A DNA stretch of 64,000 bases from a virus (IMGVR_UViG_3300037424_002120:31483-95482), one strand, 5' to 3'. Numbered from the stretch's first letter, positions 40-6,509 are shown. Program-made: numbers and translations. Notes: a model not told the origin generated them from the sequence alone.

Positions 40-453
40 ATGAATACAGATAGATTACAAGTGGGTAAAACCAGATGGTGCCATTACATGATCGGGTACC
101 ACTTGGTTTGGATACCCAAGTACAGGAGAAAAATCTTTGTGGGAGGAGTTGAAGCGGAAACAAAAAAGCTGATTGCAGCATGTTGTGAACAGCATGATGT
201 GACACTTCTTGCGCTCGAAACGGATGTGGATCATGTCCATGTGTTTGTGAGTGCTCCTCCTCGCTTGAGCCCTTCAACGATTGCGGGACTGCTCAAAGGG
301 TACACATCACGGTATCTGCGAGAGAAGTTCCCACATCTCAAGAAATTGTGTGGGAAAGAGCATTTGTGGTCAAGCAGCTATTATGTTGGCACGGCTGGGA
401 GCGTTTCGGCGGAGGTCATTCGCCGCTACATTTCTGAGTGCCAGGGAAAGTAG
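40..453 (+). CDS. tnpA: IS200/IS605 family Y1 (HUH) transposase
   Basis: YHLVWIPKYRR, HUH motif DHVHVFV, LKGYTSR, LWSSSYYVGT and catalytic Tyr helix IRRYI; 137 aa. Confidence 0.97.
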   Translation: MNTDRLQVGKTRWCHYMIGYHLVWIPKYRRKIFVGGVEAETKKLIAACCEQHDVTLLALETDVDHVHVFVSAPPRLSPSTIAGLLKGYTSRYLREKFPHLKKLCGKEHLWSSSYYVGTAGSVSAEVIRRYISECQGK

Positions 454-1893: not shown

Positions 1894-1931
1894 GAGAGAC
1901 TGCACCTCAACTACGAGAATGCAGTCTCTTT
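1894..1931. terminator. Bidirectional intrinsic terminator
   Basis: AGAGACTGCA...TGCAGTCTCT between convergent genes, A/T tails on both sides. Confidence 0.75.
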
Positions 1932-1933
1932 AG

Positions 1934-2149
1934 CTAAATGCGGCTATCTAGGAACTCTTCAAGCTCTTTAAGAGAGCGAAAACCTTGTGACCTGCTCTCC
2001 AACACAGCATTATCGTCTGGAGAGACGAATGGCGCTATCCAGTATCGTGCTTCTTGCGGGTACTGGTGCCCAACATGGATATACTTCTGGGAACTATTTA
2101 GCCAGTTCCAGCCTGCATTCTTCAATTTCGCGTTAATTTTGTCCTTCAC
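1934..2149 (-). CDS. Hypothetical protein, last gene of ART/HTH operon
   Basis: Start overlaps the stop of the upstream gene; 71 aa. Confidence 0.6.
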   Translation of the reverse strand: MKDKINAKLKNAGWNWLNSSQKYIHVGHQYPQEARYWIAPFVSPDDNAVLESRSQGFRSLKELEEFLDSRI

Positions 2150-2661
2150 TATGCCTTTTCTCCTCTATAGAGCACCAGATAAGCAGCTCTTAGCTTTTGC
2201 TGCATGCCAAGTATTTTTGTCACTGCATGGTCATCGGCCTGGGAGCCTCCGATTTGCTGATAGAAGAGACTTACATACTCCTGAGCTATCCCTATCCTAC
2301 ATCCGGTCATTTCGCTCATCTCGCCAGCACTAGATGCTTGAGCAAAATCTAGATCATTGCTAGATGCTTCTAGAATACTAAAAAGAAGATTAAATGGCTC
2401 TTTAATGGCATAATCGCTAGGGACATCTCTACGATGAATACTAATGCGATGCTTAGCAGCAAATTGAGCCATCTCTTTGATCATGCCAATGTTGCCTTTG
2501 ACACGAGATTGCCCAAGATGTGCAGCATACCACGATTTGAATTGCTCAGATTGATCATCGAGCATTCCCGCTTCAGCAGAGAGTAAGCCAGCATTAATTG
2601 CTGAATAAATCGTTGAGGAGGTAATACCGTACTTACGGCTTACCTCATGCACTGAACGCAT
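2149..2661 (-). CDS. HTH domain fused to unknown cargo domain (possible internal start at 2484)
   Basis: N-term SVHEVSRKYGITSSTIYSAINAG is HTH-like and similar to N-term of 5461-6012; AAAGG precedes internal ATG. Confidence 0.7.
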   Translation of the reverse strand: MRSVHEVSRKYGITSSTIYSAINAGLLSAEAGMLDDQSEQFKSWYAAHLGQSRVKGNIGMIKEMAQFAAKHRISIHRRDVPSDYAIKEPFNLLFSILEASSNDLDFAQASSAGEMSEMTGCRIGIAQEYVSLFYQQIGGSQADDHAVTKILGMQQKLRAAYLVLYRGEKA

Positions 2662-2664
2662 TGC

Positions 2665-3219
2665 CTACCTCACTACCAATTCAAATGCAGACGCGCCTAA
2701 AATGCTAAAATTCATGATGATGACTTCATCCATCCCAACGAAATAACCATCATATCCTTGAGATTGAAGATAAAGGCCGATGATAGCCCATCCCCAATCT
2801 GCAAGAAGATCGTCTTGATTGCAGGTTTTCTGAAGCTTCTCAGAAGGCGCAAGACCTTCATCCGATAGCAACAGATATCCCTGTTCTAATCCCCATTGCC
2901 GAGCTGCTTGACTAGCTTCATCGGCCTGTTGATGCGTTGCCAGTTTTACCCCTGGCAACGATACTTTGACGACTGCAAGATGAAGCTCACTACCCCATCC
3001 ATAAATTTTTTGCCCCCAATCACGTGCATCCCTTTCGCTCCACGTGCAGCTAAAGCCTGAACCACCTTGACACCCGCCTTGGGTTCCAATCTGGTTTTGA
3101 TCAAAACCAGATTGAAGGAGAGACTGAATATTCTCTTTGAGAGAGACATGATAGAATATATCTCCATCACGATACTCATTGATGTATTCCATATATTCTG
3201 CATATGGTACTCTTCGCAT
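2665..3219 (-). CDS. Putative ADP-ribosyltransferase-fold protein
   Basis: FYHVS...SLLQSGF...GSGFSCT...A..W and late GYDG...DEVII, resembling H-Y/F-E clade ART motifs. Confidence 0.55.
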   Translation of the reverse strand: MRRVPYAEYMEYINEYRDGDIFYHVSLKENIQSLLQSGFDQNQIGTQGGCQGGSGFSCTWSERDARDWGQKIYGWGSELHLAVVKVSLPGVKLATHQQADEASQAARQWGLEQGYLLLSDEGLAPSEKLQKTCNQDDLLADWGWAIIGLYLQSQGYDGYFVGMDEVIIMNFSILGASAFELVVR

Positions 3220-3241
3220 AGCGCTGACTCCTCTTCGTTTA

Positions 3242-3296
3242 AATCGTGTACGATTACTATGATAGTAGTATAAATCAATCGTATACGATTTGTCAA
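3242..3296 (-). promoter_or_regulatory. Sigma70-type promoter with two palindromic operators
   Basis: TTGACA (3296-3291), 18 nt, TATACT (3272-3267); perfect palindrome AATCGTATACGATT 3277-3290 and one-mismatch copy AATCGTGTACGATT 3242-3255. Confidence 0.85.
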
Positions 3297-3368
3297 TACC
3301 TTTTCAAGCCTCTTTTCAGCATTCTCGTGTACTCGCTATTGCCTGTATTGCAGCATAGCAAAAGGCAA

Positions 3369-3405
3369 AAAGAAAGCCCGACTCTCGATTAAGAGACATC
3401 GGGCA
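3369..3405 (-). terminator. Intrinsic terminator
   Basis: GCCCGA...TCGGGC stem followed by T-rich tail on the minus strand. Confidence 0.65.
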
Positions 3406-3409
3406 ATTG

Positions 3410-3616
3410 CTACTTTGGTGGCTCCCAATGACGCGGAAAACTCAAATGCACGGTCATCCTTGGGCCAGAGCCAGGCATGATGAGCTTGACGACCATTCTA
3501 CCGCTTTCATCGCCACTATCTTCTGGCTCTTGTTCAAACTCTAATTTGCGTGTGATGCCATCCACCATAACACCACTAAAGAACGATTCAATGTACTCTT
3601 GTGTTTTTTCGTCCAC
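3410..3616 (-). CDS. Hypothetical protein
   Basis: 68-aa ORF, co-oriented, before terminator. Confidence 0.5.
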   Translation of the reverse strand: MDEKTQEYIESFFSGVMVDGITRKLEFEQEPEDSGDESGRMVVKLIMPGSGPRMTVHLSFPRHWEPPK

Positions 3617-3632
3617 AACGTTTTTTCTTATG

Positions 3633-4598
3633 CTAGTGAGCTTCTAACCACACAACAACATTATCAAACTCCTCAATTAGTCTTGCAACATTATACATGA
3701 AGTCGCTTCCTTGCGTATTTGCATCCATAATATCGCTTATTCTACTTCTGAATGCATTTACTAACTCCCGATGAAACCACAGTGTGTTGGTTTTTTGCTC
3801 ACTGACATCCCTGCCAGCCTTCTTGAAGATATTGTAGGCCTCATCGCCTTGCTCCTCTACAGAAGGCACAAGGTCATCCCGTGCACTTTGCAGCTTGTCG
3901 GCCACGGAGATCAGCAGAGCGCCGACAGAGACCTCACTGAGATGATTGAGATAGGCACGCTTCCGATCGAGCCAAGGTGCCTTCTCTTCGCCCCCTGGGC
4001 CTATCTCAGTGCATTCCTTCACGAGATCGAGGACTTCCTGGCCATAATCTCCGCATCCTTCTAAGATACGCCTCTCAGGGTCTCTTTGCGGCTGGTCCTC
4101 AAGAGCATCATGCAGCGCGGATGCTGTAATCATCGCCACAGATCCTCTTGCCATCTGGACCATGAGAGCAACCTTAGAGAGATGCTCTTCGAAGTAGGAC
4201 TTCCCTGTCCTCTTGCGTATCTGTCCCCTGTGCAGTTCTTCTGCAAGATCCATACCCATACTGGGAGGAAGATCCTTCCCAATCACCCAAATTCCTTTTT
4301 TATGATCAAAATCTATACCCTTATCTACATGCCTATCTGCCCACTTCCTTGCAATATCTTCTCGTATTCTTTCATCATCGGAAGAAATTCTAGAAGACCA
4401 ATTCTTATTCATATAAACGAGCACATCTTGCTCGTTTAGCACTTGAGGAAAGGCCGCATTCATTTCCCGACTTATCGCTTGATACCTAGCTTCAAATTCT
4501 TTGCGTCCCATCATCAAAAATCCTTTCTGAGTACCATTCTGGGTGGTAATACTTGCCGTCCATTTCACGTGTATAAGGCCACACGTGGACCTCTCCAC
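3633..4598 (-). CDS. HD-domain protein, RelA/SpoT hydrolase (Mesh1/small alarmone hydrolase)-like, with N-terminal extension; start uncertain
   Basis: HRGQIRK..GKSYFEEHL, ALHDALED, LVKECTE, RKRAYL, SVADKL. Confidence 0.85.
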   Translation of the reverse strand: MERSTCGLIHVKWTASITTQNGTQKGFLMMGRKEFEARYQAISREMNAAFPQVLNEQDVLVYMNKNWSSRISSDDERIREDIARKWADRHVDKGIDFDHKKGIWVIGKDLPPSMGMDLAEELHRGQIRKRTGKSYFEEHLSKVALMVQMARGSVAMITASALHDALEDQPQRDPERRILEGCGDYGQEVLDLVKECTEIGPGGEEKAPWLDRKRAYLNHLSEVSVGALLISVADKLQSARDDLVPSVEEQGDEAYNIFKKAGRDVSEQKTNTLWFHRELVNAFRSRISDIMDANTQGSDFMYNVARLIEEFDNVVVWLEAH

Positions 4599-4734
4599 AG
4601 GGGGATACTTCTACATGTACATTGTCCAGCTCGCAAACGCAATCCTCGCCAATGGATGGACTGCATTTGCAATCTGATATTATAACTCCGTCATGCAAAA
4701 CTTCTTTCAAAACTTCTTTAGTATGGTTGTTCAT
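4492..4734 (-). CDS. Hypothetical Cys-containing protein (may be 3' half of a gene split by the omega-RNA element)
   Basis: GAGGA RBS before MNNHTK; frame is continuous with 5173-5385 if the element is removed. Confidence 0.5.
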   Translation of the reverse strand: MNNHTKEVLKEVLHDGVIISDCKCSPSIGEDCVCELDNVHVEVSPCGEVHVWPYTREMDGKYYHPEWYSERIFDDGTQRI

Positions 4735-4778
4735 GTTTTCCTCGTTGGTGATGTTCCATTTTTCCGATGGAACATCAC

Positions 4779-5192
4779 CAAACGTCCTTTCTGGATACCC
4801 CTGCCCTTTAGGCATGGGGAGGAATGAAAGCATCCCACAGGCTGGAAAATCGGTTGTATATCCTACGAGTTGTAGGAAGTGGTGGCTGACATTGTGAGTG
4901 CCACAACGGGCGTTACCCGTGCCACCATCAGCCAGTTACGGCGCACTGCTTGCGCAGGTAATGGTTGCCTCGACAAGGTTCAAAGCGGTTTAACGCTGCA
5001 AGCACTGGCACTAACCCTCGTCAGCCTGTTTAACCTGCAGCCGTAGAGCATCGGGCTGGCACGCACCCTATGGTACCTATTTCGCCATGAACGTAGTTTC
5101 TGTTTCAAAACTGAGTCTGGTCAGGTGAAACCGTTAGCAACCCGCGAGCGGATTACTGCAAGCCCCTGCCCTTTAGGCATGGGGTCCCTGAC
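4779..5192 (-). mobile_element. Non-autonomous IS200/IS605-family (IscB-type) element, 414 bp, no nuclease ORF
   Basis: Identical terminal hairpin CCCCTGCCCTTTAGGCATGGGG at ~4798-4819 and ~5163-5184; ends TCAC|CAAAC...CCCTGAC on + strand. Confidence 0.88.
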
Positions 5193-5212
5193 ATTCTATT
5201 CGATTGCCTAGC
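4930..5212 (-). ncRNA. omega-RNA (HEARO-like) scaffold of IscB type with 5' flank-derived guide
   Basis: Minus strand: GTCAGGGACCCC...GGGGCTTG...GACCAGACTCAG...CTACGTT...GGGTGCGTGCCAGCCCGATGCTCTACGG...GTTAAACAG...TTGTCGAGGC..CATTACC, the motif order recognised from HEARO/omega-RNAs; 3' end approximate. Confidence 0.85.
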
Positions 5213-5382
5213 ACGCCATGGGCTAATTTCATGGCCTTGTTGAGGCCTCTCAGCCAATCAGATCTTAGCTTGTCTGAATTTCTTGGACCATCTCCTGTCC
5301 AATTTTTGTTCATAAAATCGAGTATCTCTTGCTCGAATTCATGAACTTCCTGAAATGCTTTCATTTTTGGGAAATTATTCAT
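5173..5382 (-). CDS. Hypothetical protein whose stop codon lies in the inserted element
   Basis: AGAAAGGACGTTTG-ATG start; last codons CQGPHA* are element-derived. Confidence 0.6.
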   Translation of the reverse strand: MNNFPKMKAFQEVHEFEQEILDFMNKNWTGDGPRNSDKLRSDWLRGLNKAMKLAHGVLGNRIECQGPHA

Positions 5383-5460
5383 CAAACGTCCTTTCTTCTA
5401 TCAAGCCTACAATTGGCTTGCGCCTGCCGATTACAGAGCAACCGGCAGAAACTAACCAAT

Positions 5461-6012
5461 CTACTGCACTCTCCACAGGCTAAACTTAATTGCTGCATTC
5501 TCTACCGTCTCGGCGCTGTGGACCTCACCCTCTGCAAGGCGAGGTAATTGCGCCTGAATGACAATCAGTTGATCACCGCTTTGGAGAGACACTTTCGGTG
5601 CTCTCTCTGGAATTGGAAGATCGATCCAGAATTTACGCTTGATGGCATCAATTGTTGATGCGTGTGATGGATTAAGAGCAGAAACTACATTAGACCCTTG
5701 CAGGGTTGTTCTTACTCTATCATGATTGATAGAGGTTTTTACCATCGACGCCTCATCGGGAAACATTGTGTCTGATATTGCTAATGAAATGAATGTTGTC
5801 ATTGGATTGACCTTTCTCTTTTGTCTATTTTGCTGGTACCGTGCGTACCAAGCAATGAAATCTGATTGATCAACTGCGTACATTCTGCCCCATGGGGACT
5901 TGTGAGCTTTCAGCCCCCATGGCTTGCCTCTAAAGCCATCGCGTATCGCGTTATTGAGTACGTTGTGTGATATACCGTACTCAATAACATAAGCGGCTAC
6001 AGGCCGCTCCAT
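5461..6012 (-). CDS. HTH domain fused to AcrIII-1/DUF1874 (STIV B116-like) ring nuclease-like domain (5461-5802)
   Basis: 113-aa C-terminal domain FISLAISDTM...VVSALNPSHASTID...ERAPKVSLQSGDQLIVIQ..PRLAEGEV...IKFSLW aligns by eye with AcrIII-1; internal RBS AGAAAGG + ATG at 5802. Confidence 0.78.
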   Translation of the reverse strand: MERPVAAYVIEYGISHNVLNNAIRDGFRGKPWGLKAHKSPWGRMYAVDQSDFIAWYARYQQNRQKRKVNPMTTFISLAISDTMFPDEASMVKTSINHDRVRTTLQGSNVVSALNPSHASTIDAIKRKFWIDLPIPERAPKVSLQSGDQLIVIQAQLPRLAEGEVHSAETVENAAIKFSLWRVQ

Positions 6013-6431
6013 TAAAATCCCTCTGTTCTGGCCTTCTCAGAGGCCCTTTCTTTTGCTTTTAGGACGTTGCTCACAAGGCGCACACGACCTTTAAGGTCTG
6101 TTTGCCTGAGACCCACATCAACGGTAGTCTCAAGGACCTCCTGGATGCTATCGACCTCGTAGACTTTGTGGAATTCAGATTTATCAGCTCCTCTAGGGCC
6201 TGTACGGCCCTTGCCGATAATCTCAAAGCGCGTACCATCAGGAAGCTCGAAGATGGTTTCGACCCATGTCTTACTTTTGTCGTTGCTATCATACCATCGG
6301 GTATTCACGACGTTTTTCTTTACTTCGAACATCCTCTTCCCGTCATGTTCACCCCCAACAAATTTGGATACGACACTGGCAGAGCTGGTTGTGTGGCTCT
6401 CTGAGCCGGTTTCAATTAAAATTTTTGTCAT
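6012..6431 (-). CDS. Hypothetical protein, first gene of the acrIII-1-like operon
   Basis: RBS AGAAAGGA + ATG at 6431; TAATG coupling to the next gene. Confidence 0.7.
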   Translation of the reverse strand: MTKILIETGSESHTTSSASVVSKFVGGEHDGKRMFEVKKNVVNTRWYDSNDKSKTWVETIFELPDGTRFEIIGKGRTGPRGADKSEFHKVYEVDSIQEVLETTVDVGLRQTDLKGRVRLVSNVLKAKERASEKARTEGF

Positions 6432-6479
6432 CAAACGTCCTTTCTGTGTTTGTAAGTCACTCAATCAACTTACAAACGA

Positions 6480-6509
6480 AGTATAGCTCCATTTGAGTGG
6501 AGTTGTCAA
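6480..6509 (-). promoter_or_regulatory. Sigma70-type promoter with inverted repeat in spacer
   Basis: TTGACA-18-TATACT; CTCCA-N6-TGGAG at 6487-6502. Confidence 0.8.

Follow-up and report, generated by a model that had tools for sequence, protein, structure and literature searches.

A candidate Aca-like winged-helix family joined to exchangeable ring nuclease cassettes in a probable phage anti-defence island

Can a small phage repressor act as a constant header for a series of unrelated anti-defence proteins, and does the resulting fusion matter? This question was raised by a 64,000-nt window of DNA, bases 31483-95482 of the 95,482-bp IMG/VR virus record IMGVR_UViG_3300037424_002120. An initial annotation, made from the sequence alone, proposed that two open reading frames (ORFs) in this window, ORF A (2149-2661) and ORF B (5461-6012), begin with paralogous helix-turn-helix (HTH) 'headers' that are fused in frame to interchangeable 'cargo' domains with their own internal starts. 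Both are present as described, lie on the minus strand and encode 170 and 183 aa, respectively. The record has a CheckV completeness estimate of 87%, its genes include those for a Prim-Pol/D5 helicase, DnaB, a ParM-like actin and large lectin-domain proteins, and its relatives, contigs of 67-95 kb, have been assigned to viruses. Our analysis indicates that window positions 1895-6509 (minus strand) are likely to be an anti-defence island of this ∼95-kb uncultured phage, made up of two probably self-repressed operons, A and B. The proposed modular system, a repressor header with interchangeable cargos, is strongly supported for operon B but not for operon A. The island and the features of operon B, in the order of transcription and in window coordinates, are as follows:

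1895-6509, minus strand: probable anti-defence block (operons A and B), transcribed leftward
6480..6509, minus strand: promoter of operon B, TTGACA-18-TATACT; 11/12 consensus positions match and the architecture is kept in 12 related loci (11 distinct)
6487..6502, unstranded: putative operator B, the palindrome CTCCACTCAAATGGAG filling the promoter spacer; a single copy in the window, 0.04 expected
6449..6476, minus strand: hairpin TTTGTAAGT..ACTTACAAA in the 5′ untranslated region (UTR), of the form GTAAG(T)-TGATTGAG-(A)CTTAC, just 3′ of the −10 box; conserved in 11 loci
6012..6431, minus strand: lead gene B (139 aa), conserved together with header B; the stop codon of this gene and the start of the header overlap (TAATG)
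5803..6012, minus strand: header B, a 70-aa MerR/Xis-type winged HTH by fold prediction and structure matches; candidate Aca (anti-CRISPR-associated) protein
5800..5823, minus strand: cassette junction, from the comparison of loci; CAAAAGAGAAAGG, which codes for QKRK and apparently doubles as a Shine–Dalgarno sequence, an 8-nt spacer and ATG 5802
5461..5802, minus strand: cargo in the operon B slot, a DUF1874/AcrIII-1-like ring nuclease of 113 aa from the internal ATG, by Pfam and profile matches
5398..5460, minus strand: long hairpin, the 3′ flank of the cargo slot; common to the window and loci L004 (after Crn4b) and L006

Contexts of header B were collected from a protein cluster search, a word-index search and DNA-level scans. 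Across the sister phages the junction takes the form CAAAAGAGAAAGG-N8/9-ATG, and header B is thus joined to at least seven unrelated cargos (one of them, cargo E, at the protein level only). The K-R-K codons at the end of the header (AAGAGAAAG) are identical in all ten loci that have a cargo after the header, and the full 13-mer CAAAAGAGAAAGG is present in nine of the ten. Where no cargo follows (L006, L015 and L016), the same residues are coded otherwise (AAACGAGAT; CAAAAACGAGAT). Because the coding differs in these loci, a second constraint on the fixed synonymous codons, namely a Shine–Dalgarno function, seems likely. The motif GAAAGG-N4-10-ATG opens a frame of at least 50 aa at 18/26 sites in the phage, it is also carried by lead gene B, and the RNA at the junction is predicted to be unstructured.

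The cargo ATG was found in two of the three possible frames. It is in frame with the header (frame 0), and the two are fused, in the window (DUF1874), L004 (Crn4b), L007 and L009 (cargo B), L010 (cargo D) and L011 (a 67-aa Cys-rich protein). One extra base in the A-rich spacer places it in frame +1 in L005, L008, L012 and L013 (four loci, three distinct junctions), where the header stops 2-16 codons beyond the ATG and the cargo must therefore be translated separately. Among the nine distinct DNA-level junctions, frames 0, +1 and +2 account for six, three and zero cases, respectively; the excess of frame 0 over the expected one-third (one-sided binomial p ∼0.04) comes from related loci and hence from a sample that is not independent. 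At the DNA and protein levels together, the in-frame linkers comprise seven different sequences. Assembly error was rejected as the source of the fusions, since in-frame junctions occur in six independent assemblies with five different linkers.

In the initial annotation, both ORFs contained an AAAGG and an in-frame ATG opening an unrelated domain. The AAAGG and ATG are present at 5802 and at 2484, but the start of a separate domain was borne out at 5802 and not at 2484. Three observations support ATG 5802 as the native start of the cargo: in free DUF1874 homologues of 112-114 aa the equivalent Met is the first residue, homology with the sister operon ends there and the ribosome binding site (RBS) and ATG are out of frame with the header in four loci.

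The borders of the slot were defined by the closest relative of the window (L001 = L004), which shares ∼89% nucleotide identity with it through the promoter, lead gene and header. This similarity ends at ATGACAA and resumes just past the cargo stop codon, in the 3′ hairpin (5398-5460; −27.9 kcal/mol, z −4.05). Because homology stops and resumes at these points, the cargo slot is a cassette with defined borders, and the DUF1874/AcrIII-1 cargo of the window is exactly replaced in the sister operon by a Crn4b ring nuclease.

Both cargos were assigned to families of viral ring nucleases. The C-terminal 113 aa of ORF B match PF08960 (E 2.8e-5), which is carried by more than 60 homologues at 52-83% identity, and the DUF1874 family profile matched AFV3-109 (E 8e-4), Csx1-Crn2, STIV B116 and SIRV1 gp29 in the PDB. 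Position 47 of the 113-aa domain is His in all 32 sequences, and this His47 pairs with the GH of AFV3-109; an active-site His of DUF1874/AcrIII-1 has been described as critical for cleavage of cyclic tetra-adenylate (cA4) (PMC8284326). The suggestion that one cargo is AcrIII-1-like was thereby confirmed in terms of DUF1874 membership and the invariant His47, and cA4 cleavage is predicted. The L004 cargo matches PADLOC Unk_01 ('sometimes fused to CARF'; E 2.3e-21) and, over residues 1-106 (its full length), the Crn4b structure PDB 9r7b (E 7e-5), with NLTPH and IIGxR aligned. It keeps the T-x-H and the C-terminal Arg of Crn4 (residues as given in PMC12830947). A 2025 study identified Unk01 as the ring nuclease Crn4 and suggested an anti-CRISPR role for the copies carried by phages (PMC12830947). 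Judged by these sequence features, two unrelated enzymes of one pathway, the degradation of type III cyclic oligoadenylate (cOA), share the slot.

The association extends beyond these two loci. At six of ten distinct loci (the window, L004, L005, L006/L015, L007 and L012/L013), a DUF1874 or Crn4b ring nuclease is encoded downstream of the header at a distance of no more than ∼500 bp (0-2 genes), and among the four others two contigs stop within ∼400 bp of the header. Homologues of the header are thus strongly associated with anti-defence genes, as the initial annotation had anticipated. Cargo B, which has a CxxC..CxCxC motif, occurs at five loci (four distinct). No family was matched by cargo B, cargo D, the 67-aa protein, cargo E or the other cargos.

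Two further observations concern domains attached to ring nucleases. DUF1874 proteins P0065, P0072 and P0074 (also P0073 and P0078) have an extra C-terminal domain of ∼125 aa that belongs to no named family; its motif, ...EIQELEAA..D..EVADLVYYA..., is MazG-like by eye only. A separate gene that by eye resembles this domain lies a few genes 3′ of the header in L005 (4676-5086), L006 (5177-5614) and L007 (5997-6374); it has no Pfam match. In addition, the Crn4b-like proteins of L028 (Paenibacillus phage Scottie gp26) and L030 (a Clostridium sporogenes plasmid) carry N-terminal extensions of ∼65-105 aa, which correspond to the 60-80 aa extensions 'of unknown function' described on some phage and plasmid Crn4 orthologues (PMC12830947). 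These were considered as possible versions of header B and rejected, since they differ from each other, belong to no Pfam family and show no visible likeness to the header.

What kind of protein is header B? It is rare, with only seven clusters found among 1.84 billion representative proteins. Its sequence had no match in Pfam (including MerR and HTH_17), PHROGs, NCBIfam, PADLOC or PDB sequences, its occurrence was not confirmed in GTDB genome contigs and ORF B had no match in cultured phages. The header is found in three architectures: N-terminal to unrelated cargos (P0047, P0050, P0058, P0063, P0076, P0077 and P0080), stand-alone (P0083 and P0084, and at loci L005, L008 and L012/13) and at the C-terminus of proteins of 323-334 aa (P0086, L006 2769-3740 and L016 2769-3740). 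In these longer proteins, the preceding domain of ∼250 aa has no family match. In L016, the most divergent locus, the gene 3′ of the header gene (3828-4640) has a 270-aa product that contains an endonuclease VII domain (Pfam E 3e-24).

The fold of header B was predicted for the header alone, with the DUF1874 part left out. The AlphaFold (AF2) model, based on an alignment of 16 sequences, has a predicted local distance difference test (pLDDT) score of 86 and a beta-alpha-alpha-beta-beta-alpha topology, with a helix 3 of only ∼20 residues. VIA structure matches were BrlR (Z 7.7), BmrR (7.0), MtaN (6.8), CarH (6.7), RacA (6.7) and the Pukovnik Xis (5.8). The matches to MerR-family folds align 60-67 of 73 residues, cover the whole domain and are mutually consistent; Foldseek returned nothing at E ≤ 0.001.

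The initial annotation had described each ORF as the second gene behind a TTGACA-18-TATACT promoter with a different inverted repeat in its spacer, and both promoters and both palindromes were found. The promoters (6509..6480 and 3296..3267, minus strand) are the only two zero-mismatch copies in the window. Since looser copies are present elsewhere in the phage, this promoter type is general in the phage and the palindromes are the specific part. In operon B, the arrangement TTGAC[AT], a 15-16 bp palindrome and TATA[AC]T, with spacers of 17-18 bp, is kept in 12 loci (11 distinct). Variants of operator B of the form CTCCA(N5-6)TGGAG are present at every related locus, with CTACACATATGTGTAG where the recognition helix is altered. 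Headers with H-N-V-L-N-N in helix 2 accompany the operator TCCACT..AGTGGA, and those with H-T-V accompany TCCAAC..GTTGGA. The most divergent header, that of L016 (R-Y-V-L-T-N), is paired with CTACACATATGTGTAG, which was found in two L016 promoters. L006 also has the operator in two promoters, the second of which is directly upstream of DUF1874. These pairings provide good comparative evidence that header B would read the spacer palindrome. Given a promoter close to consensus, with near-optimal spacing and a spacer filled by the operator, we infer that binding would repress transcription. The 5′ UTR hairpin (6449-6476) has a folding energy of −12.4 kcal/mol (z −3.1); in L016 it reads GTAGG, and pairing is kept as G-U in the RNA.

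Header B therefore has two traits of an Aca-type regulator: a small protein with a DNA-binding fold is co-operonic with or fused to DUF1874/Crn4b at six of ten distinct loci, and an inverted repeat overlaps its own promoter (12 loci, 11 distinct). The proposal that the HTH is a new Aca-type marker is plausible for header B, given the conservation of the spacer palindrome and its covariation with the recognition helix. Lead gene B is 57-89% identical across six loci and was assigned to no family by Pfam, PHROG, PADLOC or PDB sequence searches, with no usable match in the ESM Atlas. Its earlier listing as an anti-defence candidate is weakened, since it is a conserved core partner of the header and not a variable cargo. 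Versions of the lead protein with an in-frame N-terminal extension of ∼60 aa, joined via ..KKM, are present in L011 (2911-3498), L006 (2169-2720) and L016 (1908-2504), and show the same fused-or-free habit as the header–cargo junction.

On this basis, we propose how operon B may work. The HTH of header B would bind the spacer palindrome, probably as a dimer, and close the promoter once enough product is present, in a manner likened to the action of Aca proteins at acr operons. The HTH gene lacks its own stop, and its last codons (QKRK, CAAAAGAGAAAGG) would also serve as the Shine–Dalgarno sequence of the next cargo gene. The slot between the junction and the 3′ hairpin is exchanged among related phages, presumably by recombination. 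With the ATG in frame, a start at 6012 would give an HTH–ring nuclease fusion and a start at 5802 would probably give the free 113-aa enzyme. With the ATG in frame +1, the header and cargo would be made as separate proteins.

Is the fusion itself the point of the system, as initially suggested? The in-frame product could be a functional unit, a MerR-style ligand-responsive regulator in which cA4 or another ligand at the cargo alters operator occupancy. The layout invites this reading, because MerR proteins also have an N-terminal winged HTH, a helix and a C-terminal ligand domain, with the operator in the spacer, and the fold resembles BrlR, BmrR, MtaN and CarH. Moreover, published structures show the two ring nuclease families to bind cOA as homodimers, which would dimerise the HTH on its palindrome, and the excess of in-frame junctions and the seven different linkers point in the same direction. 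However, that excess was counted among related loci, and the header is also joined to at least seven unrelated cargos, including proteins of 67-100 aa with no sign of ligand binding. It stands alone in L005, L008 and L012/13, there are fused as well as free versions of cargo B and Crn4b, and a single base in the A-rich spacer separates the two states. In L006, DUF1874 is served by a separate operator-bearing promoter and the HTH belongs to a different protein. In addition, the spacers are 17-18 bp, compared with 19-20 bp at MerR-activated promoters. The occurrence of the same cargos in fused and free form argues against a required allosteric link between ligand binding and repression, and we consider a ligand-responsive fusion unlikely. 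Its most specific version, in which the HTH–ring nuclease is a viral alarm sensor and binding of cA4 (or, with Crn4b, cA3/cA6) to the dimeric cargo frees or remodels the HTH on the operator, appears rather improbable. Were it true, the phage would raise its anti-defence operon only after the host type III CRISPR fires, and the one-base frame toggle would switch lineages between sensing (fused) and constitutive autoregulated (unfused) forms. The case for the repressor–effector fusion as the purpose of the system is thus weakened. Since cargo B and Crn4b are both fused and free and the header exists in three architectures, fusion is not essential; it is tolerated and perhaps useful. The fusions may be a by-product of very tight cassette junctions without stop codons, possibly with a mild use, for instance if a dimeric enzyme brings two HTH domains together.

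A different view of the same fold is that the header is an excisionase (recombination directionality factor) or a small-terminase-type DNA-binding domain and not the transcription factor of the operon. Xis proteins (Pukovnik, lambda, GIsul2 and RdfS) and gpNu1-like domains do match the model (Z 4.4-5.9), but they are outscored by the MerR-family matches. No integrase lies nearby, in a phage with ParM-type partition and primase-helicase genes, and in 12 loci (11 distinct) the palindrome falls exactly between the −35 and −10 elements of the operon that encodes the header and covaries with the recognition helix. We therefore regard this explanation as very unlikely and retain header B as a candidate autorepressor of operon B.

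Does operon A follow the same logic? Its features are:

3267..3296, minus strand: promoter of operon A, TTGACA-18-TATACT, an exact match
3277..3290, unstranded: putative operator A1, the perfect palindrome AATCGTATACGATT in the spacer, from a palindrome search
3242..3255, unstranded: putative operator A2, AATCGTACACGATT, 35 bp downstream of A1 and past the −10 box
2665..3219, minus strand: lead gene A, 184 aa, possible ADP-ribosyltransferase (ART), from ESM Atlas neighbours
2149..2661, minus strand: ORF A, 170 aa, with an N-terminal HTH (∼residues 3-31; weak HTH matches) and a helical C-terminal part
1934..2149, minus strand: small third gene in the operon, encoding 71 aa without a family match
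1895..1929, unstranded: likely terminator of operon A, a hairpin accompanied on the minus strand by a run of T, from a structure scan and sequence reading

A1 and A2 are the only two copies of operator A in the 95-kb phage. The nearest ESM Atlas clusters of lead gene A are ART-PolyVal and AcrIF11-type ART (scores 0.92-0.94), and it matches the catalytic domain of diphtheria toxin weakly (E 0.9); there was no Pfam match at E ≤ 0.1 and none in PHROG or PADLOC, and its identity as an ADP-ribosyltransferase is a lead only. The HTH matches of ORF A are weak (mad1, E 6e-4; rep_pAB02_ORF2, E 2e-4; HTH_17, E 0.033), and nothing significant was found among PDB sequences. By analogy with operon B, operon A would combine a promoter, twin operators, a possible ART-like lead and an HTH protein.

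The kinship of the two headers is less clear. The shared pattern reported initially, YGI..AI..G...DQS..F..WYA, does align across the header, but paralogy was not supported: BLASTP gave E 0.011 over 70 columns with 13 gaps, and hhalign gave a probability of 2.9% (E 0.015) at 30% identity. A tblastn search of the whole phage with header B found only itself. It is plausible that both headers belong to the same HTH_17/MerR-type superfamily, B by fold and A weakly by sequence. The alternative is that ORFs A and B are unrelated ordinary phage regulators, ORF A being a two-domain repressor in which Met60 is merely internal and the likeness is a generic HTH_17 pattern. In agreement with this, the similarity between the headers is not significant, and the sole homologue of ORF A, P0082, is of similar length and collinear across ATG 2484. 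No relatives of ORF A were found in IMG/VR, cultured phages or plasmids, no shorter homologues were detected and no free header A or free cargo A was found in any collection; nothing supports the claim that ORF A is modular. The AAAGG is 10 nt from ATG 2484, a long spacing, and one long helix (residues 32-70) spans the proposed junction and runs through Met60, in a low-confidence AF2 model (pLDDT 44). Conversely, the promoter design and gene order of operon A match those of operon B, the shared pattern is aligned over the entire header at 30% identity, and with so few homologues of ORF A its modularity is not refuted. We lean slightly towards unrelated regulators, and ORF A may be a plain two-domain repressor.

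Several points weigh against an anti-defence island with two self-repressed operons. The window DUF1874 scores 24.6 bits, slightly below the Pfam gathering threshold of 26. The fold scores of the 70-aa header B (Z <8) are moderate, and such scores can reflect a common arrangement. A stand-alone header has only the 20-residue C-terminal helix, so its dimerisation is assumed. The three operator classes track the overall divergence of the headers, and their covariation is thus not phylogenetically independent. The case for operon A rests almost wholly on analogy, and the only pointers to the host and its CRISPR type are matches of insertion sequence (IS) ends in metagenome-assembled genomes (MAGs) of Ktedonobacteria/Chloroflexia.

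How does operon B compare with known systems? The closest design is that of AcrIIA13-15 of Staphylococcus (Watters et al. 2020), and also AcrIIA1, in which a shared N-terminal HTH is linked to divergent anti-CRISPR C-termini (PMC7104187). The AcrIIA13-15 HTH binds inverted repeats at its own operon promoter, and AcrIIA13b is a natural homologue without the N-terminus (PMC7104187). Operon B resembles these systems in its common N-terminal HTH on unrelated C-termini and the inverted repeats at its own promoter. In contrast to them, header B is a predicted MerR/Xis-type winged helix with no detectable sequence relation, and its cargos include predicted enzymes against type III signalling, whereas theirs are Cas9 binders. 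A conserved RBS and ATG lie in the header B junction, so that one base decides whether the cassette is fused or free, and a conserved lead gene is present upstream of the HTH.

Classical acr–aca operons (Aca1, Aca2 and Aca10-Aca14) likewise place anti-defence genes and a small DNA-binding autorepressor under one strong promoter, which inverted repeats overlap (PMC8633003, PMC9410881, PMC13551039), and their regulator, like header B, can be used as a guilt-by-association marker. They differ in gene order, with variable acr genes upstream and aca last; here, the variable genes are downstream of the HTH and the conserved gene is upstream. In addition, operator B fills the spacer in MerR fashion, and binding by header B is a prediction. 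In AcrIF24, an Acr and an HTH that represses the acr promoter are one polypeptide (PMC9001735). However, AcrIF24 is a fixed multi-domain protein with an unrelated fold and a type I-F target, whereas header B is found on exchangeable cargos. The cargos themselves belong with the viral ring nucleases AcrIII-1/Crn2 and Crn4b (PMC8284326, PMC12830947) and retain either the catalytic His (DUF1874) or the T-x-H with the C-terminal Arg (Crn4); that literature does not describe them as fused to, or controlled by, a header-B-type HTH. Finally, the MerR regulators BmrR, MtaN, BrlR and CarH share the DNA-binding fold, the palindrome in the spacer and, in fused forms, a C-terminal effector domain. Unlike them, header B lacks the long antiparallel coiled-coil dimerisation helix and has no sequence-level membership (no Pfam MerR or HTH_17 match), and its 17-18 bp promoter spacers are shorter than the 19-20 bp spacers of the MerR promoters, which are activated by DNA distortion. 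Taken together, the design is one already known from AcrIIA13-15, AcrIIA1 and AcrIF24, to which operon B adds a new family of Aca-like proteins linked with anti-type III ring nucleases. What is new is the HTH family and its fold type, the ring nuclease link, the embedded RBS–ATG that toggles between fused and free cargo and the conserved upstream partner gene.

These features give the locus several uses. Header B is a candidate Aca-type marker for viral ring nucleases of bacterial phages, where such markers are scarce. The slot yields candidates for activity against type III CRISPR or other cyclic-nucleotide defences, namely the Cys-rich protein of cargo B, cargo D, the zinc-like 67-aa protein and cargo E, together with lead gene B. 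The exact exchange of AcrIII-1 for Crn4b between conserved flanks is independent genomic support for the proposal that phage Crn4b acts as an anti-CRISPR. An RBS coded within the basic tail of the HTH would also offer a route by which Acr–Aca fusions could arise and revert through single-base changes.

Other elements lie within or close to the block. Between operons A and B, positions 3633-4529 (minus strand) encode an HD_4/RelA-SpoT-type HD hydrolase (Pfam E 1e-10; phrog_990), which may be another nucleotide-signal hydrolase. A 21-nt IS-end hairpin is present at 4800-4820 and 5167-5187 and in loci L018-L027. Six of its ten matches, all exact copies, are in Ktedonobacteraceae, Ktedonobacterales and Chloroflexia MAGs, and a few are in Bacillota; as a lead, these copies may point to Ktedonobacteria/Chloroflexia as the host phylum. 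At the left edge of the window, positions 40-453 (plus strand) contain an ORF that resembles an IS200/IS605-type Y1 transposase, by eye only. Within the anti-defence block, positions 4958-5192 (minus strand) contain a full-length HEARO/IscB-type omega RNA (Rfam RF02033, 132 bits, E 3e-27), without an adjoining IscB ORF and flanked by copies of the hairpin CCCTGCCCTTTAGGCATGGGG.

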